From: Alphaproteobacteria bacterium
GTDB taxonomy: Bacteria > Pseudomonadota > Alphaproteobacteria > MPNO01
Direction: 5' to 3'
NCBI GenBank assembly: GCA_964291675.2
Contig: OZ219865.1
Span: forward strand, 1,056,001-1,120,000
Length of the DNA: 64,000 nucleotides
The notes under the pieces are model-generated. The model had not been told where the DNA came from, did not search any database, and was given only the letters and a program-made list of their open reading frames with translations. Shown here in pieces: positions 55 through 11,777 of the stretch. The position numbers and the translations under genes were made by a program. The first letter of the stretch is position 1. The number at the start of each line of letters is the position of its first letter.

Positions 55-225
55 GACGTGCTCCTGGCGGGAATATTGATGGCGGCAGGAGCGTAGGAAC
101 CCCCGCCCGACGCGGCAATGGGAGAGTGAGTGTCATGCAGCGGTCGCGGGCATGACGCGAGTCGTGGCGACTCCACCCCGCGTTGAGCGCACTATACTGA
201 CGTAGGGTAGCTTGCAGCGCTGGGG

Positions 226-1056
226 GTGGTATTGGACGCCGTGCAGTTGCCGGGCTGGCTCGAGGCGTTGCGGAGAGACGAGATCATCGGCCCGGTCCGC
301 AACGATCCCCGATCGCAAGGCGGCACGCGCTTCGGCATGACCTCGGACCAGGCGGTTGAAGCCATCGGCCGCGGTCAAGCCGACTTCGATGCCCCATTGG
401 GAGCTTTGTCCCCGGACGACTTGGCGCTGCTCTACGCGTTCATGAACCAGAGGGGCCACGTCGAGGAACTGGTTACCGCTTTCGGCCAACTCCTGGCTGG
501 CGCGCGGCCGGAGAATCCCATCGTCGTGGATATAGGCTGCGGTCCTTTCACCGGAGGCCTCGCCCTGGCGGCGACGCTTGGGGACGAGCCGTGCTTCGAC
601 TATATCGGTGTTGACCGCGCGGAATCGATGCGGCGGCTCGGCGCGCGCCTGGCAGGCTCGAATCTCCTGCCCGGACAGGTGACAGCGCGTTGGGCTTTCG
701 ACATCGACTCTGTCAAATGGCAGCGGCCTCCCGGGTTTCGGGAAGTGATCGTGATCGTCTCGTACCTGTTTGCCAGCCCGACCCTGGACGTCGAAGCCGT
801 CTTCGGGGACCTCGAACGCCTGCTCGATCGGCTCGGCCGCGGTGCCGTGACGCTGCTCTACACCAACTCGGCGCGGCAAGAGCCCAACCGGCACTATCCG
901 GAGTTCCGGGAGAGACTCGAATCGGCGGGCTTTCGCGTGCATGCACAGGATCAAGGCGAGATCGTCGTCGAGCGGTCCAGTCGTCGCCAAGCGCGCAGGC
1001 TGTACTACGCCCTTTTCCGCCGCCCTCCGCGGCAAACTCTGCGACTTGGAGACTGA
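226..1056 (+). CDS. Class I SAM-dependent methyltransferase (Rsm22-like), substrate unknown
   Basis: Motif I VVDIGCGPFTG, acidic motif II YIGVD, VIVSYLF; start may be GTG 241. Confidence 0.75.
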   Translation: MVLDAVQLPGWLEALRRDEIIGPVRNDPRSQGGTRFGMTSDQAVEAIGRGQADFDAPLGALSPDDLALLYAFMNQRGHVEELVTAFGQLLAGARPENPIVVDIGCGPFTGGLALAATLGDEPCFDYIGVDRAESMRRLGARLAGSNLLPGQVTARWAFDIDSVKWQRPPGFREVIVIVSYLFASPTLDVEAVFGDLERLLDRLGRGAVTLLYTNSARQEPNRHYPEFRERLESAGFRVHAQDQGEIVVERSSRRQARRLYYALFRRPPRQTLRLGD

Positions 1057-1057
1057 C

Positions 1058-2146
1058 GTGCGGCTGCCGACCTACGAAGAGATCGCTCGCGTCGAGGAGC
1101 AACTCGCGGTCTACGAGACGCCGTTCGACCAGTCGCTGTTTGTAGTGGGACCGCCCGGCTCCGGTAAGACGGTGCTCGCGGTCCATCGCGCCCAAATGAT
1201 CGCCGGCGCCGACGTCCAAGTAGTACTGATAACCTACAATCGAATGCTCCGTCGTCTCATCGTCCAGTTGACGGAGGAACAGGTCCAGGCGCAGACCATG
1301 CACAGCTTCGTGAGCGCTCGCTACTACGAGCAAACGAAGACTGGAGCGCCGCAGCCGGAAGAGTTCGATTACGACTGGCATGCGATGTTCGCGACGCTCA
1401 AGGAGCGTGGCGTGGTGCCCCAACCGATTTGTGCCATCGTCGACGAAGCCCAGGACCTTCCCCGGTCATTCTTCCGTTACCTCCGGGATTACGTGGCGAG
1501 CGCCGTCACGGTGTTCGCCGATGAGGACCAGGCCCTCCGCGCAGACCGTTCCACGCTCCGCGACATCCAGTCTGAGGGGCGTTTCGGCGATCCGGTCCTG
1601 CTGAGCGCCAATCATCGCAACACGCCCGAGATCGCGCGTGTCGCCGAGTTCTTTCACGCGGGCGATGCTCCCGTGCCCGAGGTGAAGCGCGGTCGGTCCA
1701 GCGAACTGCCGCGCCTGGTAGCCTGTCGCATGGAGAGCGCGACCGTGCTGATCGCCAACTGGTACAGTACACGCGGTGGCCGCGTCGGTGTCGCGGTGGT
1801 CCGCAACGACACGGGAGAGAGCCTGTACTCCCGCTTGCGCGATCGACTCCCGGGACAACCTGTCAACATCTACACGACCGACAGAAAGAACGAGAACGAG
1901 ATCGACCTCCTGGGACGGGGAGTGACGATATTGAACGTGGGGTCGATCAAGGGGCAAGAGTTCGACACCGTCTTCGTCATGGAGGTCGGCAAACTTCTTC
2001 TCCACAGCAACCCGGTGAATCAACGCAAGATGTACATGCTTTGCGCCCGGGCGCGGGATAGTCTCTTCCTGATGCATGAGGGCGACCGCTTGCCCGATGC
2101 GCTCCTCGACCGGTTGCCGGGCCCCGAATTCCTGGAACGGCCATGA
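1058..2146 (+). CDS. Compact superfamily 1 (UvrD-like) helicase/ATPase
   Basis: GPPGSGKT, LITYNRML, TMHSF, IVDEAQD, FADEDQ, NHRNT, KGQEFDTV, YMLCARAR; GTG start 1 nt after upstream stop with GGAGA RBS. Confidence 0.9.
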   Translation: MRLPTYEEIARVEEQLAVYETPFDQSLFVVGPPGSGKTVLAVHRAQMIAGADVQVVLITYNRMLRRLIVQLTEEQVQAQTMHSFVSARYYEQTKTGAPQPEEFDYDWHAMFATLKERGVVPQPICAIVDEAQDLPRSFFRYLRDYVASAVTVFADEDQALRADRSTLRDIQSEGRFGDPVLLSANHRNTPEIARVAEFFHAGDAPVPEVKRGRSSELPRLVACRMESATVLIANWYSTRGGRVGVAVVRNDTGESLYSRLRDRLPGQPVNIYTTDRKNENEIDLLGRGVTILNVGSIKGQEFDTVFVMEVGKLLLHSNPVNQRKMYMLCARARDSLFLMHEGDRLPDALLDRLPGPEFLERP

Positions 2147-4419
2147 GCGGACAGACAAATTTCGACTTCATGGACCCGCCGGACGGAAGCGCGGAGCGTG
2201 CGGCCGATGGAAGTCCTCCGGGCCAGGACGGCGACCGGAGATCGGCTGGTTGGCTGGGCCTCGCGACGAACCATCGAAGGCTGTTCGTCGCCAGCCAGGA
2301 CGGTTGGCTGCGCCCGCCCCCCGGCTCCTGCTTCCTTCTGGGACGGGAGAGCTTCGTATCGGAGGAAGTTTCCGGTGCCCGAAACGCGATCCCGATACGC
2401 CTCGCCTTCGACGTTGACAAGCTCCCCTTCCCGGACGCCCGGAGAGACCTGGAACGTGACGATGGCGACGTGTCCCCGGTCGTTCCCTGGCGCGCACCGA
2501 TCCCCCTCTATGCGGCCACGACCGTCGAAGTCCCCTCCGACGGACAGAAGACACACCTCCTCGCGATGGCGGGACAATTCTCCAACCTCTCCCTGCCGGA
2601 CACAGCGGTCGCGGTGACCGGGTTCGCGCCGGAACCTGCCCCGACGGGCGATCCCGGAACCCCGGAAGCCCGACCTTTGGAATTGCCCGAGGCGTTGAAC
2701 GCCATCCAGGGGGCGATGGCGATGGCGGTTTGGGCGGTGCCCCACGTGGAGCCGTGGATCGAGGTCTTGCGCCGGATCCTCGGGCGGAACGCGGCCGGGT
2801 TTGCGAAAGAAACCTTACGGCTCGACGCGCAATGGTTGCAGGTCCCTTGGCTGGATGGAGACCCTTCGGAAGGTGTTGGGGACAATTCAGACGATCAAGA
2901 GCGGCTGTGGCGGGCGGCATTGTCCTGCATGGAATGGCCGAAAGCCGAGGAAGAATCCCCCGCCACACTCGCCGGCCGGATAGCGCAAACAGCCTCTCTC
3001 GACGAGACGCACCCTTGGCCGGAGCGGACTCGACGGATCGTCGCAGGAAATGAGACGGTCTCCTGCGACGATTGGCGCGGCAACGGCGCAGGCCTCGCCA
3101 TATGGCTCGCCCTGCTGCGGCCGGACCCGATGAGATTCAGAACCTGGAACCAGGACCTGCCGGGTCTGCCGCCCGGGGTGTGGTGGGCCGCCGCCACCCT
3201 GTGCGGATGGCGCCACGGCTACCGGGCTCTCGACAGGGAATTCCGCGGCGATGCCGGGCTGCGGGAATACCTGGCGACCCGCGCTCTGGCGGCTTCCTGG
3301 CCGGGCGGCGAGGCGGCGGCGCTGCCGCCCTCTCAACGGTCTGCCCTCGAACGGATGGACGAGGACGGCTACTTCACGCTGGCCTGGCGCGGCGCGCCGG
3401 TGCTTCGCAAGCAGTGGAAAGCCCGCGCCAAGTGGTACGCCGCCGACCTCACCGCCACCGCCGCCGGCGAGGCGGCCCGGGACCTCGCCGGTCGGTTGGC
3501 CTGGCCGTGCATCGAGCGCCGGCTTTCCTTGCCGAAAGGGCGCTGGCATGCCGATGGAAGCGGCAACTGGTTCGTCGATGGCGACGATCTTGTCGTTGAA
3601 GGGAAGAAAAGCCTTCGACTGCCGCAGGACGTCGATGTCGAAGAGCGCGTGGATCCCGACGAGTTTCGTCGCAGGCTGGCGACCGAAGCCGGCGTCGTTC
3701 CAGACCCACCGCAGGTCTTTGCGCGCCGGTTCGAGGCGGTGGCCGGCGTCGTCATGGAGTCGCCGGAGGCCTATCGTGCCCCGTCGATGACGGAGGAAGT
3801 CGTCACGGCGGACTTGCCGCGAGCCGATCGAGCCCAGTCCGCAATCGAGCCGCCGGGCTTGATTTGCAGGCCGGAATTCATCACGGAGGAAGAAGAGGCC
3901 AAGCTGTTGGCGTGGATCGACGGAGCCGAGTGGAGCACGGAACTTCAACGCCGAGTGCAGCACTATGGGTGGCGCTACGACTACAAGAAGCGCGGGATCG
4001 ACGAATCGGACCGCGCGCCGGAACTCCCGGAATGGGCGCACGAATTGGGCCATAGACTAGTGGACGAAGGGTTGATCCCGAACCGGCCCGATCAGCTGAT
4101 CGTCAACGAATATCTCGGCGACCAGGGCATCGCGCCCCATATCGACCATCCGGACGACTTCGCCGAGCATATAGCGACGATCAGCCTGCTCGAGACGTGG
4201 CTGATGTTTTTCCACCGCACGAGCGACCGGAAAATGCTACCCAAACACCTGGAACGTCGCAGCGTCGCGGTCCTGACGGGCGATGCGCGATACAAATGGA
4301 AACACGAAATCCCGCAGCGCAAGACCGTCCCTCCGATAGGCGGCAAGGGCAAACGCACGCCACGATCCCGACGGGTTTCACTGACCTTCCGCACAACGCG
4401 ATTCAGCCTGGACGCCTGA
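2143..4419 (+). CDS. Fusion protein: large unknown N-terminal region plus C-terminal AlkB-family 2OG-Fe(II) dioxygenase
   Basis: C-terminus RRVQHYGWRYDY, QLIVNEY, HID (HxD), KHEI, RVSLTFR; ATGA overlap with helicase stop. Confidence 0.85.
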   Translation: MSGQTNFDFMDPPDGSAERAADGSPPGQDGDRRSAGWLGLATNHRRLFVASQDGWLRPPPGSCFLLGRESFVSEEVSGARNAIPIRLAFDVDKLPFPDARRDLERDDGDVSPVVPWRAPIPLYAATTVEVPSDGQKTHLLAMAGQFSNLSLPDTAVAVTGFAPEPAPTGDPGTPEARPLELPEALNAIQGAMAMAVWAVPHVEPWIEVLRRILGRNAAGFAKETLRLDAQWLQVPWLDGDPSEGVGDNSDDQERLWRAALSCMEWPKAEEESPATLAGRIAQTASLDETHPWPERTRRIVAGNETVSCDDWRGNGAGLAIWLALLRPDPMRFRTWNQDLPGLPPGVWWAAATLCGWRHGYRALDREFRGDAGLREYLATRALAASWPGGEAAALPPSQRSALERMDEDGYFTLAWRGAPVLRKQWKARAKWYAADLTATAAGEAARDLAGRLAWPCIERRLSLPKGRWHADGSGNWFVDGDDLVVEGKKSLRLPQDVDVEERVDPDEFRRRLATEAGVVPDPPQVFARRFEAVAGVVMESPEAYRAPSMTEEVVTADLPRADRAQSAIEPPGLICRPEFITEEEEAKLLAWIDGAEWSTELQRRVQHYGWRYDYKKRGIDESDRAPELPEWAHELGHRLVDEGLIPNRPDQLIVNEYLGDQGIAPHIDHPDDFAEHIATISLLETWLMFFHRTSDRKMLPKHLERRSVAVLTGDARYKWKHEIPQRKTVPPIGGKGKRTPRSRRVSLTFRTTRFSLDA

Positions 4420-4439
4420 GCGATCGCCTGCCGGGGCTA

Positions 4440-6827
4440 TCACACCCGCCCGAGCGCCCTCAGCACGGTCTCCGGCGTGATCGGGTGCTCGGTCACCCTG
4501 GCGCCGAACGGCGTGAGCGCGTCGTTGACCGCGTTCATCACCGCCGACGGCGCGCCGCCGACGCCCGATTCGCCGACCCCCTTGGCGCCGAGCTCGGATT
4601 CGGCGGTCGGCGTCTCGACATGGGCCACGTCGATGTCGGGCATCTCCAGCGCCATCGGCGTCAGGTAGTCGACCATGGTGCCGTTCTGGAGCTGCGCGTT
4701 CTCGTCGTAGATGCAGTGCTCGTAGAGCCCGCCGCCGATCCCTTGGATGGCGCCGCCGCGGACCTGCTCGTCGGCCAGCATGGGGTTGACCACCCGGCCG
4801 CAATCCTCCACCACCCAGTGGTCGAGCAGCCGCACCATGCCGGTCTCGACATCGACCTCGACATGCGAGGCGTGCGCGCCGTTGGTAAATATGTAGATCC
4901 GGTCGCGCAGGCGGAAATGCCGCGTCTGGGTGAGCTCGGGCTGGATGTCGTTGGGCAGCTCGCCGACCTGGAAATGGCCGATGCGGCCGATCTCGGCGAG
5001 CGAGACTCTGGCCGTCGTGCCGCCCGCATCCACCACCTCGCCGCCGGCCACGTCCAGCCGCTCCGGCGCGGTCTGCAGCAGCGCCCCGGCGAGCCGCAGG
5101 ATCTCGGCGCGCAGCGCGCGGCCGGCGAGCCAGGTCGCCTCGCCGCCGATCGCCGTCGCCCGGCTGGCATAGGTGCCCCCGCCATAGGGCACCGCGTCGG
5201 TATCGCCCGAGATCACCCGGACGCGCTCGATCGGCACGCCGACGGCGGTCGCCGCGATCTGGCGCATCGCCGCATCCGCCCCCTGCCCCTGCTCGGTGAC
5301 GCCGACGGCACACAGCACGCCGCCGCCGGGCTCCAGGCTCATCGTGCAGGCGTCCTGCGAGGCGATCGGCGCCTTGCCGGCGCCGTAATAGCCCTCCGGC
5401 CCGGGCGCGGTGCCCTTGATGAAGCAGCAGACGCCGATGCCGCGCCAGACGCCGTCTGCGCGCAGCCGCGCCTGCTCGGCGCGCAGGCGGTCGTAGTCGA
5501 TGCGCGCGACGAGCTGCTCCAGGCAGGCCTGGTGCGACAGGTCCTGGACGTGCACGCCGGATGCGGTGCTGCGCGGGTAGGAGTCGTCCTGCATCAGGTT
5601 GCGCCGGCGCAGCTCGACCGGGTCCATGCCGATGGTCCCGGCGGCGAGGTCGAGCAGCGCCTCGCTGGCGGAGATGCCGATCGGGTGGCCGACGCCGCGA
5701 TACTGCGAGGTCGGCACGCCGTTGAGATAGACGATTTTCGCCACCGCCCGGTAGTTCGCGTGCCGGTAGGGCCCGCCGGCGATATTCAGGATCTGGTTGG
5801 CCTCGAACACGCTGGTGCGGGGGTACTGCGAATAGGCGCCGACGCCCGACAGGTCGTCGATCTCCAGCGCGGTGATCTCGCCGTCCCGGGTGAGGGCCAT
5901 GCGCGCCCTGATGCGGTTCTCGCGGGCGTGGATGTCGGTGACGAAGGATTCGAGCCGGTCGGCGACGAACTTGACCGGCCGGCCGAGCAGTATCGCCAGC
6001 GCGCAGACCGCGACCTCGTCGCCATAGGTGTGGATCTTGAGCCCGAACGAGCCGCCGACATCGGGCGCCACGATGCGGATGTTGTGCTCGTCGACCGGCA
6101 GATGCCGCGCGAACACGGTCTTGATCATGTGCGGCACCTGGCTGGAGGTGTGGACGGTGAGCTTCTCCGCCCCGGGGTCCCAGTCGGCGAGCAGGGCGCG
6201 CGGCTCCAGGCTGACCGCGGTGTGGCGGCCGAACTCGTAGGTCTCCTCGACCGTCACCGCGCCGGCGGCGGCGAAGGCGGCATCGACGTCGCCGTTGTCG
6301 ATGTCGCGGCGCCAGGCGAGGTTGTCGCCGAGCCCGGGATGCAGCACGGTGGCGCCCGGGCCGAGCGCGCGCTCCTTGTCGATGACGACGGGAAGCTCCT
6401 GCCACTCGATCTCGACCAGCTCGGCCGCGTCCTCGGCCTCGGCCCGGGTGCGCGCGCAGACCGCCGCCACCGGCTCGCCCTGCCAGCACGCGCGGTCGGT
6501 CGCCATCGCGTGCTGCTCGGCCGCCTTCATCCCCTCGAAGCTGGTCAGCATCCCCGACCAGGGCGGGCAGTGGCGGGCGAGCTCGGCGCCGGTCATCGCG
6601 CAGACCACGCCGGGATGGGCGGCCGCCGCCGCGGTGTCGATGCCGAGGATGCGGGCATGGCCGTAGGGGCTGCGCACGAACGCCGCGTGCACCATGCGGG
6701 GCAGCGCGATGTCGTCGGTATAGCGCCCCCGCCCCGCCACCGCCCGCCTGGCGCCGGGGCGCGACAGCACCCGGCCGACATAGGAGTTGGGACCGTCGAA
6801 GGGGGTGACCGGATTGCCAGACGACAC
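4440..6827 (-). CDS. Xanthine dehydrogenase family molybdopterin-binding large subunit
   Basis: GRGRYTDD, VRSPYGHARI, GGSFGLK, YRGVGHP, GQG, GAKGVGE motifs. Confidence 0.92.
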   Translation of the reverse strand: MSSGNPVTPFDGPNSYVGRVLSRPGARRAVAGRGRYTDDIALPRMVHAAFVRSPYGHARILGIDTAAAAAHPGVVCAMTGAELARHCPPWSGMLTSFEGMKAAEQHAMATDRACWQGEPVAAVCARTRAEAEDAAELVEIEWQELPVVIDKERALGPGATVLHPGLGDNLAWRRDIDNGDVDAAFAAAGAVTVEETYEFGRHTAVSLEPRALLADWDPGAEKLTVHTSSQVPHMIKTVFARHLPVDEHNIRIVAPDVGGSFGLKIHTYGDEVAVCALAILLGRPVKFVADRLESFVTDIHARENRIRARMALTRDGEITALEIDDLSGVGAYSQYPRTSVFEANQILNIAGGPYRHANYRAVAKIVYLNGVPTSQYRGVGHPIGISASEALLDLAAGTIGMDPVELRRRNLMQDDSYPRSTASGVHVQDLSHQACLEQLVARIDYDRLRAEQARLRADGVWRGIGVCCFIKGTAPGPEGYYGAGKAPIASQDACTMSLEPGGGVLCAVGVTEQGQGADAAMRQIAATAVGVPIERVRVISGDTDAVPYGGGTYASRATAIGGEATWLAGRALRAEILRLAGALLQTAPERLDVAGGEVVDAGGTTARVSLAEIGRIGHFQVGELPNDIQPELTQTRHFRLRDRIYIFTNGAHASHVEVDVETGMVRLLDHWVVEDCGRVVNPMLADEQVRGGAIQGIGGGLYEHCIYDENAQLQNGTMVDYLTPMALEMPDIDVAHVETPTAESELGAKGVGESGVGGAPSAVMNAVNDALTPFGARVTEHPITPETVLRALGRV

Positions 6828-7050
6828 GGCGCGCTCCGTCAGGGGTTCGGGATCGGCCGGGACGCTAGCAACATCGGCGGGCCGTGGCTATGGCGGGCGG
6901 GGGCGGTGGCCATATCGATCGGCACCGCGGTCGAATTCACGGACAACCGGCCCGGGCGATCCCTCGATACGGCGCCCCGCGCCTACTCGGGATGAGCCTG
7001 TGCCTGTCCTCGCTGCGCTGCGGCATTTGTCGAGCCATAGCAACCCCCCT

Positions 7051-7161
7051 CGTCATGCCCGGACTTGATCCGGGCACCCATGCGACCCCTCCGCGCGCAA
7101 GGCGGCCGGGCGGGAGAGGCGGTGGCGCCAGTGGGTGCCCGGATCAAGTCCGGGCATGACG
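7051..7161. repeat. CGTC-type REP doublet (REPIN-like), copy 1
   Basis: Perfect 30-bp inverted arms cgtcatgcccggacttgatccgggcaccca at 7051-7080 and 7132-7161, 51-bp spacer. Confidence 0.9.
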
Positions 7162-7225
7162 AATGGGGGGCATGGCGATGGCAGGGACGAAGCCCCGGAA
7201 AATGACCTTATATGCAAATTAATGC

Positions 7226-7254
7226 TTGACATGGGACGCGTTTTGGGGTAGATT
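7226..7254 (+). promoter_or_regulatory. Sigma70-like promoter
   Basis: TTGACA-17 bp-TAGATT in an AT-rich patch. Confidence 0.6.
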
Positions 7255-7272
7255 TGGCATGCTAGCCAATGT

Positions 7273-7300
7273 GGGCGCCGGAACTCCCGGCGCCCTTTTT
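7273..7300 (+). terminator. Intrinsic terminator-like hairpin upstream of amidase
   Basis: gggcgccgg-aactc-ccggcgccc followed by ttttt. Confidence 0.65.
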
Positions 7301-7323
7301 CGTTGCCGCAAAGGAGACCCGCC

Positions 7324-7788
7324 ATGCAATTCGCCAAGCCCGCCCGCCCGGTCGATCGCGTCTTCCTGCATTGCAGCGCGAGCGACAACCCGGACCACGA
7401 CGATATCGGCACGATCCGCGCATGGCATGTCGACGGCAATGGCTGGTCGGATGTCGGCTACCACTATTTCATCCGCAAGGACGGCACGCTGGAAGCCGGA
7501 CGGGCGCTGGAGCGCACCCCGGCGGCGCAGTCCGGCAACAACGCGGGCACCGTGGCGGTCTGCCTGCACGGCCTGGCGGCGGAGAATTTCACCGAGGCGC
7601 AGTTCCGCACCCTCGCCGCCCTCGCGCGCGAGATCGACGAAGCCTATTCCGGCCGCGTCACCTTCCACGGCCATTGCGAGGTCTCGGCCAAGTCCTGCCC
7701 GGTGTTTCCCTATGCCGAGGTGCTGGGGCTCGACGAGGCGGGCCGGATGGCGCAGCCGCGGCCGGACGACCCGGCCGTCGCCGCGTAG
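7324..7788 (+). CDS. N-acetylmuramoyl-L-alanine amidase (T7 lysozyme-like, amidase_2)
   Basis: FLHCSA, WSDVGYHYFIRKDG, GR, FHGH, KSCP zinc-site motifs; AAGGAG RBS; no signal peptide. Confidence 0.9.
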   Translation: MQFAKPARPVDRVFLHCSASDNPDHDDIGTIRAWHVDGNGWSDVGYHYFIRKDGTLEAGRALERTPAAQSGNNAGTVAVCLHGLAAENFTEAQFRTLAALAREIDEAYSGRVTFHGHCEVSAKSCPVFPYAEVLGLDEAGRMAQPRPDDPAVAA

Positions 7789-7789
7789 C

Positions 7790-8152
7790 CTAGCCGGACG
7801 GGCGCGCGGCGACGGCGATCAGCTCGATCTTGTTGCCGCCGGCGAAGGTCACCTGCACGCAGGACCGCATCGGCCAGCCGGCCGGGTCGTCGCCGATCCA
7901 GCGCGCCCACATCTCGTCGAAGCCGGGCTTCTCGCCGATGTCGTGCAGATAGACCTGCACGCCGAGCAGGCGCGACCGGTCGGTTCCCGCCGCCGCCAGC
8001 CCGCGGTCGAGCGCCTCGAAGGCGCGCTCGGCCTGATCCCGGAACGGCAGGGAGAAATCGTCCGACATGCCGAGCACCCAGGCGAGGTTCTCGAAGGCCG
8101 AGCCCCAGCAGCGGCTCGGCACGTTGCCGGGAATGCGCAGGATGTCGGTCAT
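7790..8152 (-). CDS. Rid (YjgF/YER057c/UK114) family protein, YoaB-like
   Basis: QAERAFEALDRGL, VYLHDI, FDEMWARW, PMRSCVQV, KIELIAVAA. Confidence 0.8.
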   Translation of the reverse strand: MTDILRIPGNVPSRCWGSAFENLAWVLGMSDDFSLPFRDQAERAFEALDRGLAAAGTDRSRLLGVQVYLHDIGEKPGFDEMWARWIGDDPAGWPMRSCVQVTFAGGNKIELIAVAARPSG

Positions 8153-8375
8153 GGCGGTTCTCCTCGGCTCATCGGACGGGGCAGGTGGACGGCGATCGGC
8201 GGAATGGCGATCAATAGCGCGAACGGCACGAAGCCGCAGCCGACGAAGCGGACCGCCGCGCGCGCCTCCTCCCACGGCGCGGTTCCCCGCGGCGCCACCG
8301 GCGAGCCCATCGACACCCGACTCGGGGAGGCGGCTTGATCGGGAGCGGATGTGCCATTAGATTGACGGCAACACC

Positions 8376-10809: not shown

Positions 10810-11493
10810 ATGGCGCGCGATTTCGAGGATCACTGCTGGAAGGACATCGTTCCGCCGGAGGTGCTCAGGGTCTACGAATGCTATCGCCGCGAGCTCCGCA
10901 TCGGCACGCGGCCGGCACTGCTGGCGGTCGACCTCTACGACCTGGTCTATCGCGGCGGGCCGCACCCGCCGCACGAGCTGCTGGAATACCCCAACACCTG
11001 CGGGATGTACGCGTGGGCGGCGATCGAGCCGACCAGGGCGCTGTTCGCCGCCTGCCGGGCGGCCGGCCTGCCGGTGCTCTACGTGACCGGCTCGACGCGC
11101 AAGTCGCGGGTGCAGTCGACCAAGCGCCGGAGGCGCGACCGCATCGGCCCCGACGCCTACGAGATCTTCGAGGCGTTCACGCCGGAGGACGGCGATGCGG
11201 TGTTCCGCAAGGAGCGCGCGAGCGCCTTCGCCGGCACGCCGCTGGCCGCCCATCTCAACGAGCTCGACGCGAACAGCCTCATCGTCTGCGGCGAGAGCAC
11301 GTCGGGCTGCGTCCGCGCCTCGGTGGTCGATGCCTACTCGGCCGGGTTCCACGTCACCGTCGTCGAGGAATGCGTGTTCGACCGGAGCGAGCTGTCGCAC
11401 AAGGTCAACCTGTTCGACATGCACCACAAATACGCCGATGTGATGGTTCTCGAAGAGGTGCTCGACCACCTCGACCTGCGGCGCGCCGCCTGA
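10810..11493 (+). CDS. Isochorismatase-family cysteine hydrolase
   Basis: ALLAVD, KERASAFAGT, GESTSGCVRASVVDA (D-K-C triad). Confidence 0.9.
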   Translation: MARDFEDHCWKDIVPPEVLRVYECYRRELRIGTRPALLAVDLYDLVYRGGPHPPHELLEYPNTCGMYAWAAIEPTRALFAACRAAGLPVLYVTGSTRKSRVQSTKRRRRDRIGPDAYEIFEAFTPEDGDAVFRKERASAFAGTPLAAHLNELDANSLIVCGESTSGCVRASVVDAYSAGFHVTVVEECVFDRSELSHKVNLFDMHHKYADVMVLEEVLDHLDLRRAA

Positions 11494-11546
11494 TCCCTCG
11501 ATGTAGTGCCCGCCGCGCCTACTCCGAACGAGGACATGTTGCGAAC

Positions 11547-11777
11547 ATGGCAACGACGATCCGGATCCGAAACGTTCCCGACGAGCTGCACCGCGAGCTC
11601 AAGGCGCGCGCGGCGCTGGCCGGCCTGTCGCTGTCCGACTTCCTGCTCGCCGAAATCCGCGAGGTCGCGGCGCGCCCGACCGTCGACGAACTCCGCCAAC
11701 GCATCGCGCGCCGCGGGGTCGTCGCGCCCTCCGTGCCGCCCGCCGAGGCAGTCCGGCAAGAACGCGAAACCCGGTGA
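11547..11777 (+). CDS. Ribbon-helix-helix antitoxin (FitA/VapB-like)
   Basis: MATTIRIRNVPDELHRELKARAALAGLSLSDFLL. Confidence 0.85.
   Translation: MATTIRIRNVPDELHRELKARAALAGLSLSDFLLAEIREVAARPTVDELRQRIARRGVVAPSVPPAEAVRQERETR

Follow-up and report, generated by a model that had tools for sequence, protein, structure and literature searches.

Oxidative demethylation has so far been known mainly from DNA and RNA repair and from eukaryotic epigenetics. In human alkylation repair, the helicase ASCC3 works with the AlkB-family dioxygenase ALKBH3 and presumably supplies it with single-stranded substrate, and the replicase polyproteins of the plant-infecting Flexiviridae combine methyltransferase, AlkB and helicase activities. 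ALKBH8, a eukaryotic tRNA wobble-uridine methyltransferase/hydroxylase, is a single polypeptide with an RNA recognition motif (RRM), a zinc finger and a Trm9-like methyltransferase, and it acts on a tRNA side chain by hydroxylation, not by demethylation. The joining of its AlkB domain to a class I methyltransferase is cited in the sections of PMC4738411 that we draw on. Here we describe a bacterial locus at which related activities are encoded side by side. It lies in a stretch of 64,000 nucleotides from an Alphaproteobacteria bacterium (assembly GCA_964291675.2, contig OZ219865.1, forward-strand positions 1,056,001 to 1,120,000), which we refer to as the window. At window positions 226-4419 (4.2 kb) there is a cassette of three co-oriented, coupled genes, which code for a methyltransferase-like protein (MT) that is predicted to use S-adenosylmethionine (SAM), a superfamily 1 (SF1) helicase (HEL), and a protein in which a large N-terminal region (NTD) is fused to an AlkB dioxygenase domain (NTD-AlkB). 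Judged by comparative sequence analysis, the cassette is a real, conserved and mobile three-gene system that includes a new domain and is undescribed as far as we searched. Plausibly, it is defensive.

The MT open reading frame (ORF) spans 226-1056 on the forward strand, begins with GTG and encodes 276 amino acids. It is separated by a single nucleotide from the HEL ORF (1058-2146, forward strand; 362 amino acids counted from the GTG at 1058), such that the junction at 1054-1060 reads TGA-C-GTG. An alternative HEL ORF with an ATG start (941-2146) would overlap the MT gene, and the GTG at 1058 matches the point at which homologues begin (consensus MRLPT...). The NTD-AlkB ORF (2143-4419, forward strand, 758 amino acids) shares the four nucleotides ATGA (2143-2146) with the end of HEL. 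The same 4-nt overlaps are present in the Comamonas cassette, and the helicase and AlkB genes of Curvibacter overlap too. Thus, translational coupling, as predicted from these junctions, is a conserved property of the cassette. Upstream lies a divergent glutathione S-transferase (GST) gene and downstream a convergent molybdopterin hydroxylase gene. The GC content of the cassette is 65.1% versus 69.4% for the 4.8-Mb genome, which places it at the 6.7th percentile among segments of equal size, and GC at third codon positions is likewise low (0.77-0.78 for the cassette genes versus a median of 0.88 for long ORFs with high values). An earlier reading of this DNA, made from the letters and translations without database searches (the sequence-only reading), had already described three tightly coupled genes between these two flanking genes and, by eye, a lower GC content, and the measurements agree with it on each point.

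The three genes are inherited jointly. A search with the NTD over 5.8 billion proteins returned 125 related clusters, and most of the 120 listed have a similar length and carry PF13532, the Pfam family of the AlkB domain. A complete HMMER scan gave 319 representatives at E<=1e-30. From the best 80 genome loci we assembled an AlkB-anchored set, in which gene counts rest on tblastn coverage. All three genes are intact and adjacent in 68 of these 80 loci, with the order MT-HEL-NTDAlkB in 63 and HEL-NTDAlkB-MT in five, although one locus scored as intact (L007) seems to hold an insertion of ~1.1 kb inside the helicase gene (about 6273-7400). The other loci include seven with partial or disrupted cassettes, three with NTD-AlkB alone and two that are cut by contig ends. 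Reciprocally, among 43 metagenome loci anchored on MT, HEL immediately follows MT in 38 and precedes it, in the alternative order, in one. HEL is absent from four, three of which end within 52 nt of MT. The fourth (L137) starts 10 nt before MT, and so is compatible with the alternative order. NTD-AlkB is present in every MT-anchored locus that extends at least 1.5 kb beyond HEL. All-against-all clustering of the flanking ORFs revealed no family present in more than eight of the 80 loci, and hence no fourth conserved gene. Pairwise identities of the cassette parts covary across 56 loci (Spearman 0.51-0.87), as co-inheritance predicts, which is not proof of binding. No variation is seen in the catalytic motifs of any of the three families. 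The three genes are a real, strictly co-inherited unit, and the single operon proposed in the sequence-only reading holds up when homologues are examined for co-occurrence. Decayed copies are also seen, including one in a Defluviicoccus metagenome-assembled genome (MAG) whose MT gene has an in-frame stop (L006, 732-1559) and several with truncated or separated genes in MAGs (L064, L054, L021, L057 and L058).

The distribution of the unit points to mobility. It is found in three of 11 other species of the same genus, in none of 29 genomes from other genera of the order and in one of 400 other sampled Pseudomonadota, but spans at least eight phyla, with record titles that name Pseudomonadota, Acidobacteriota, Gemmatimonadota, Chloroflexota, Cyanobacteriota, Tectimicrobiota, Planctomycetota, Bdellovibrionota and Myxococcota. 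Cultured carriers include Comamonas testosteroni, Curvibacter lanceolatus and Pseudomonas rossensis, as well as Lysobacter, Variovorax, Paraburkholderia and Rugamonas isolates. In a FastTree phylogeny of 75 NTD-AlkB proteins, from which six rows were excluded for non-collinear matches, the window pairs with a Defluviicoccus MAG, and both fall within a Gammaproteobacteria clade to which a single Chloroflexota and a single Synechococcus bin also belong. On this tree there are 11 changes of phylum label, where seven would be the minimum, an excess that MAG binning errors could explain in part.

The clearest evidence for mobility is an empty-site comparison. In two congeners that lack the cassette (G068 and G066), the GST gene lies beside a hydroxylase gene that is 92% identical to that of the window. 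DNA homology between the window and these genomes breaks off at window position 58 or 70 and restarts exactly at 4440. The corresponding slot of G068 (L167) is 1.3 kb long and carries a HicA toxin ORF (1331-1738), whereas that of G066 (L168) is 2.8 kb long and carries HicA (1116-1508) together with an IS3-type transposase (HTH_Tnp_1 and rve domains; 2524-3872). The presence of HicA instead of the cassette indicates that the latter is swappable cargo in a variable slot, or hotspot. By these boundaries, window positions 59-4439 are a self-contained, horizontally mobile three-gene module.

The sequence-only reading had named the product of the third gene an AlkB fusion, thereby overlooking that ~530 of its 758 residues form an unannotated domain. 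Its assignment as a fusion is supported by clusters of like length that carry PF13532 and by an AlphaFold2 model built from an 80-sequence alignment (mean predicted local distance difference test score, pLDDT, 88.2; predicted template modelling score 0.76). All parts are encoded on the forward strand. On the basis of the secondary structure of the model, the NTD has an alpha/beta subdomain (a; residues 35-160, positions 2245-2622). This is followed by a predicted helical subdomain with many invariant Trp, Arg and Gly residues in the alignment (b; residues 185-395, positions 2695-3327) and by a predicted beta-rich subdomain in which R428 and W431 are invariant (c; residues 400-515, positions 3340-3687). 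A linker that is predicted to be disordered (pLDDT <50) and varies in length in the alignment (residues 528-566, positions 3724-3840) leads to the ALKBH8-like Fe(II)/2-oxoglutarate dioxygenase domain of the AlkB type (residues 570-758, positions 3850-4416).

The NTD has no match in Pfam, NCBIfam, PHROGs, PADLOC (version 2023) or the PDB by sequence or profile search. Compared with Pfam, 38 members have no family in common to more than one of them, even with E relaxed to 5, and NCBIfam yields only a weak alkb match. The invariant residues of the NTD are all W, R, G or P, none of them a D, E, H, C, K or S, and the NTD diverges faster than any other part of the cassette (mean identity 37% versus 49-53%). 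Based on these two features we read the NTD as a recognition or scaffold module and not as an enzyme. The structure atlas had offered DUF952 and DarT as leads for subdomain a (TM-scores 0.47-0.60), which would make it similar to an ADP-ribosyltransferase (ART). These matches are weak and come from a poor model (homologue P0098), and the idea was dropped when hhalign comparison with a DUF952 alignment from nine genomes returned a probability of 2.4%. That no polar residue is invariant is a further point against an enzymatic role of the NTD.

Four giant proteins (P0160, P0165, P0268 and P0269; 1,213-2,208 amino acids) contain subdomains a and b with 45-48% identity. They lack an AlkB domain and also carry NADAR, DUF4326 and SLOG (DprA-like or YAcAr) domains. 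The a+b unit directly follows NADAR in P0160 and P0268, the two that were inspected. Giant multidomain proteins of this kind are typical of phages and conjugative elements. In the portions of the Aravind papers used here, including PMC9503650, NADAR, DUF4326 and SLOG domains are described as fused together in phages, and NADAR is predicted to be a de-ADP-ribosylase that stands in for the Macro eraser in DarT-DarG-like systems. With a+b placed beside NADAR and the NTD placed beside AlkB, the same module would accompany two unrelated types of enzyme for removing base adducts. Two short AlkB paralogues (~175-195 amino acids) are also encoded elsewhere in the genome of the window (L002, G000:C1:229993-230502; L003, G000:C2:73301-73813). 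They are 44% identical to the AlkB domain of the cassette and lie in near-duplicate gene sets that also contain a DprA-like/SLOG ORF and genes for a single-stranded DNA-binding protein (SSB) and NADAR. These sets look like cargo of an integrative and conjugative element (ICE) or other conjugative element.

The AlkB domain itself scores 61.1 bits with PF13532 (cut-off 31.2) over residues 610-750. Its iron triad H666/D668/H721 (HxD..H) and the 2-oxoglutarate-binding arginines R744/R750 (RxxxxxR) are invariant in 80 sequences, which corroborates the intact motifs pointed out in the sequence-only reading. The nearest solved relative is ALKBH8 (1.5e-22, with the next at 1.6e-10), followed by a DNA N6-methyladenine demethylase, a fission-yeast protein, ALKBH6 and ALKBH7, and not by repair AlkBs. 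Furthermore, the score with TIGR00568, the equivalog model of canonical repair AlkB proteins, is 18.8 bits versus a cut-off of 231. By these matches, the domain sits on the ALKBH8/4/6/7-like side of the family and not with the classical repair enzymes.

HEL is a minimal SF1 helicase/ATPase with a HelD/UvrD-like core, as indicated by Pfam AAA_19 (38 bits versus a cut-off of 25.1) and by SF1 motifs I, II, III, IV, V and VI, which are kept in 48 homologues. The invariant residues in these 48 sequences include G34, G36, K37 and T38 of the Walker A motif, D129, E130 and Q132 of motif II, and R331 and R333 of motif VI, in accord with the UvrD-like helicase with all core motifs that had been recognised by eye. 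When the HEL profile is compared with the PDB, the best matches are HelD (3.6e-24), UvrD (1e-11) and GajB (1e-6). The similarity to HelD covers residues 528-757 of that protein, its ATPase core, and HEL is a bare SF1 core without the accessory 1B/2B domains or the N-terminal RNA polymerase-binding domain of HelD. It scores 33.8 bits with the NCBIfam HelD equivalog, which requires 419, and also weakly matches Viral_helicase1 (8.8e-5).

The assignment of MT is a weaker point of the annotation. The protein is predicted to have a ~90-residue N-terminal extension and a Rossmann-type core with a motif I of the pattern D-x-G-C-G-P-x-T-G-G, in which D102, G104, G106, P107, T109 and G111 are invariant in 39 homologues, as is D130 at the end of strand 2. 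MT remains below every Pfam threshold (15 bits with Methyltransf_23/25, where 27 are needed), and the family profile matches solved class I enzymes only in the SAM-binding/motif I region (Tmt1, 6e-5; METTL17, 4e-4). A structure-atlas comparison with the Curvibacter homologue returned unnamed clusters and generic methyltransferase families only. The class I SAM methyltransferase proposed in the sequence-only reading is thus upheld by motif I and D130 but does not reach a Pfam gathering score, and class I membership rests on motif I together with weak profile matches to solved class I methyltransferases. MT also lacks the (D/N/S)PP(Y/F) sequence that forms the catalytic motif IV of N6-adenine/N4-cytosine DNA methyltransferases; the consensus at this place is VIVSYLLASPTL. 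This absence counts against methylation of exocyclic amino groups and leaves open methylation of ring nitrogens, which generates the classical substrates of AlkB. A second MT-like ORF (10862-11713; PADLOC mad2, 8.7e-11) is located just 3' of the cassette at L007, which comes from a gammaproteobacterial MAG.

The genomic neighbourhoods of the cassette provide a further clue. We searched three ORFs on each side of 25 diverse cassette loci (143 ORFs) with PADLOC and treated 25 regions at fixed coordinates in Pseudomonadota genomes (149 ORFs) as controls, with ORFs picked by one routine. Matches at E<=1e-8 are found at 16 of 25 cassette loci versus six of 25 controls (Fisher p=0.0096). The neighbours include Lamassu (three loci), a complete type I restriction-modification (RM) system, BREX PglX with a GajB-like helicase, DISARM DrmD, Cas1/Cas4, PD-Lambda-2 A+B, a CBASS phospholipase effector, mad8 and Hp1, and Pfam searches of the flanks add ABC-3C and SMODS genes. 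The control matches are all generic, comprising a sigma-54 activator AAA protein, GlgB, a cyclase, a helix-turn-helix protein, an ABC-like ATPase and PD-T4-2_B. In Comamonas testosteroni (L075; 1485-5126 and 12690-14168) the cassette abuts a Lamassu/ABC-3C system with a SMODS (CBASS-type) gene nearby, and in Rugamonas aquatica (L081; 2154-5908) it also abuts a Lamassu/ABC-3C system. The enrichment of defence genes beside the cassette is real, though modestly powered, and accords with the defence-island setting that the sequence-only reading had suggested looking for.

From these observations we infer a substrate, an order of action, an antagonism between writer and eraser, and a defensive role. 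Our tentative proposal, which we hold with slightly less than even confidence, is that the cassette is a mobile writer-motor-eraser conflict system (defence or toxin-antitoxin-like) acting on nucleic-acid bases. In this mechanism, HEL would expose single strands, MT would methylate bases on them, and NTD-AlkB would oxidatively reverse the mark wherever its targeting domain directs. The NTD, which is large, evolves fast and is apparently non-catalytic, would serve as the targeting domain to which the AlkB enzyme is tethered. DNA would be a likelier substrate than RNA, to judge from the relatives of HEL, which are DNA helicases or, in the case of HelD, an RNA polymerase-binding protein, and from the domains that accompany the NTD elsewhere. 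A more specific version, suggested by analogy and in our view rather unlikely, is a methylation counterpart of DarTG in which MT is the toxic effector and NTD-AlkB the antidote. MT would then place methyl lesions that block replication or translation on strands opened by HEL, such as phage replication intermediates, and the AlkB domain, aimed by the NTD, would keep self nucleic acid clean.

Several observations weigh against a conflict system. The cassette has no nuclease or other obvious effector, and the best solved relatives of MT are a small-molecule methyltransferase and a ribosome-assembly methyltransferase-like factor. A full-length copy was found neither among 72,556 plasmids nor among 50,697 phage records; the plasmid search gave only AlkB-domain matches, on five plasmids, and the phage search gave none. 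The excess of defence neighbours narrows to 11 of 25 loci versus four of 25 controls at E<=1e-20 (p=0.06), and the controls in both comparisons are from Pseudomonadota only and are not phylum-matched. Nine of the 25 sampled loci have no defence neighbour, and the flanks of the window's own cassette and of its closest relative are housekeeping genes. Lastly, the standing of ALKBH8 as the nearest solved relative of the AlkB domain favours a two-step modification.

That rival would be a two-step modification of tRNA or rRNA of the ALKBH8 type, in which MT adds a methyl group or methyl ester, AlkB hydroxylates it to a stable product and HEL remodels the RNA. The cassette would then be an accessory module for tuning translation, possibly one used in conflicts. 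The gap between ALKBH8 and the next relative is large, ALKBH8 itself pairs the two activities, and the MT profile touches METTL17, a ribosome-associated methyltransferase-like protein. However, neither ALKBH8 nor Trm9 is among the matches of the MT profile to solved structures, and no RRM or other RNA-binding domain is detected with Pfam. HelD, UvrD and GajB, the relatives of HEL, are SF1 enzymes associated with DNA or RNA polymerase. In addition, a patchy spread driven by horizontal gene transfer and the presence of defence neighbours would be unusual for core RNA modification enzymes, and the domains that accompany the NTD elsewhere (NADAR, SLOG and DUF4326) hint at reversal of base adducts, if the chemistry of DarT is a guide. 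On balance, we regard this alternative as doubtful.

Somewhat harder to sustain, and improbable in our estimation, is an operon for helicase-assisted repair of alkylation damage. As a bacterial counterpart of ASCC3-ALKBH3, it would have HEL unwind substrate for AlkB, with MT in a regulatory or unrelated role. The AlkB fold with all of its iron and 2-oxoglutarate ligands intact fits such a function, as does the adjacency of HEL and AlkB, which is the most constant feature of the cassette and is kept in both gene orders. Moreover, NTD-AlkB persists alone at three of the 80 loci, and the short AlkB paralogues in the same genome adjoin SSB and NADAR genes. Repair nevertheless leaves unexplained why an intact SAM methyltransferase is co-inherited at 68 of 80 loci, and MT is never found apart from the cassette in the 43 MT-anchored loci, bar the cut contig L137. 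Repair genes are not usually enriched near defence systems or swapped with toxin-antitoxin modules at a hotspot, and the relationships of the AlkB domain, including its low TIGR00568 score, point away from the repair enzymes. Finally, counter-defence or mobile-element cargo, by which the cassette would help a plasmid, ICE or phage to erase or rewrite host marks, is suggested by the a+b units of the giant NADAR, DUF4326 and SLOG proteins and by the AlkB paralogues in ICE-like gene sets, but is very unlikely. Plasmids and phages gave no full-length matches, the 86 ORFs that flank 15 of the loci include no integrase, relaxase or phage structural gene, and every record with one of the 80 loci bears the title of a bacterial genome or MAG, many of them chromosomes.

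Some additional features of the region are worth recording. The intergenic region between the divergent GST and MT genes (59-225) forms the left edge of the swappable segment and is the presumed promoter region. Promoter and terminator scans of the cassette gave nothing above shuffled sequences, and the sigma-70 consensus is unmatched in 59-225. Farther downstream, the window encodes an N-acetylmuramoyl-L-alanine amidase (Amidase_2; 7303-7788), a RidA/L-PSP protein (7790-8275) and a long ORF (10878-11777) whose residues 227-256 resemble a FitA-like ribbon-helix-helix antitoxin. Five congeners (G061, G063, G065, G066 and G068) each have 35-42 matches to the large subunit of molybdopterin hydroxylase (E<=1e-100), which is an unusually high number of paralogues.

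Were the cassette to act in defence or in the manner of a toxin-antitoxin system, oxidative demethylation would join the chemistry of bacterial immunity, and the ALKBH8/ALKBH4-like branch of the AlkB family would gain a bacterial context. The NTD would then be a new domain of ~500 residues with the apparent task of directing erasers of base adducts to their substrates, with AlkB as the eraser in the cassette and NADAR elsewhere. Should the DarTG-like version be true, this would be the first conflict system with a SAM-dependent base methyltransferase as its toxic effector, and the antidote, through its need for Fe(II), 2-oxoglutarate and O2, would tie immunity to the metabolic state of the cell. 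Even if the genes serve two-step RNA modification or repair, they would still represent an undescribed and widely transferred pathway. Because the cassette is small, self-contained and present in cultured strains, the question is directly testable.

How the locus relates to described systems can be judged from both models and literature. PADLOC gives weak, partial matches only, namely C3a159 (3e-7) and mad2 (1.7e-6) for MT, besides mad8 (2.2e-8), GajB (1.6e-7) and a DRT-associated NERD-helicase, with none for the AlkB protein. A full-text literature search found no defence or toxin-antitoxin system that contains AlkB, although the supplements of large defence-discovery screens were outside its reach and might list the cassette. 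Hence, the combination, which the sequence-only reading did not recognise among named systems, matches no described system within the scope of these searches. The Hma, BREX and DISARM readings were rejected, since no PADLOC model of these systems is among the matches listed for the three proteins.

The cassette lacks the defining components of MADS, Gabija, RM, BREX, DISARM and DarTG. MADS, Gabija, BREX and DISARM resemble it in that their defence operons include a methyltransferase, a UvrD-like ATPase or both, but they have no AlkB domain, and the cassette has no GajA, PglZ, DrmA or nuclease of any kind. The PADLOC matches to MADS and Gabija span only the SAM-binding or P-loop parts of the cassette proteins. 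In the portion of the MADS description used here (bioRxiv 10.1101/2023.03.30.534895), the model makes mad6, mad7 and mad8 mandatory; the cassette lacks mad6 and mad7 and has partial mad2 and mad8 matches only. Likewise, the GajB models of Gabija match short end segments only, with a strength of 1.6e-7 at best.

Outside of bacterial defence, ASCC3-ALKBH3 shares with the cassette the pairing of a helicase with an AlkB-family dioxygenase. However, ASCC3 is an SF2 Ski2-like helicase whereas HEL is an SF1 enzyme of the HelD/UvrD type, the ASCC complex has no methyltransferase, and homology is limited to the AlkB fold. Flexiviridae replicases place methyltransferase, AlkB and helicase activities side by side, but theirs are capping methyltransferases and RNA-virus helicases, joined within a single polyprotein that belongs to eukaryotic viruses. 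We found no specific similarity to them, and the resemblance is probably convergent. ALKBH8, like the cassette, brings an AlkB domain together with a class I SAM methyltransferase. A direct counterpart would hold an RRM, an AlkB domain and a Trm9-like methyltransferase in one protein, and of these the AlkB domain alone matches. In the cassette, the methyltransferase is a separate gene with no detectable similarity to Trm9 or ALKBH8, no RRM was found, an SF1 helicase and a 530-residue domain are added, and the whole is a mobile module in a bacterial host.

A different kind of likeness links the cassette to DarT-DarG and DarT-NADAR. The chemistry of those systems is ADP-ribosylation, whereas methylation is predicted here, and the cassette carries a helicase and has no ART, Macro or NADAR Pfam domain. 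Nevertheless, the arrangement predicted for the cassette shares with them a base-modifying writer and its eraser in one operon in defence contexts, and the NTD of the cassette is fused elsewhere to NADAR, the eraser that replaces DarG.

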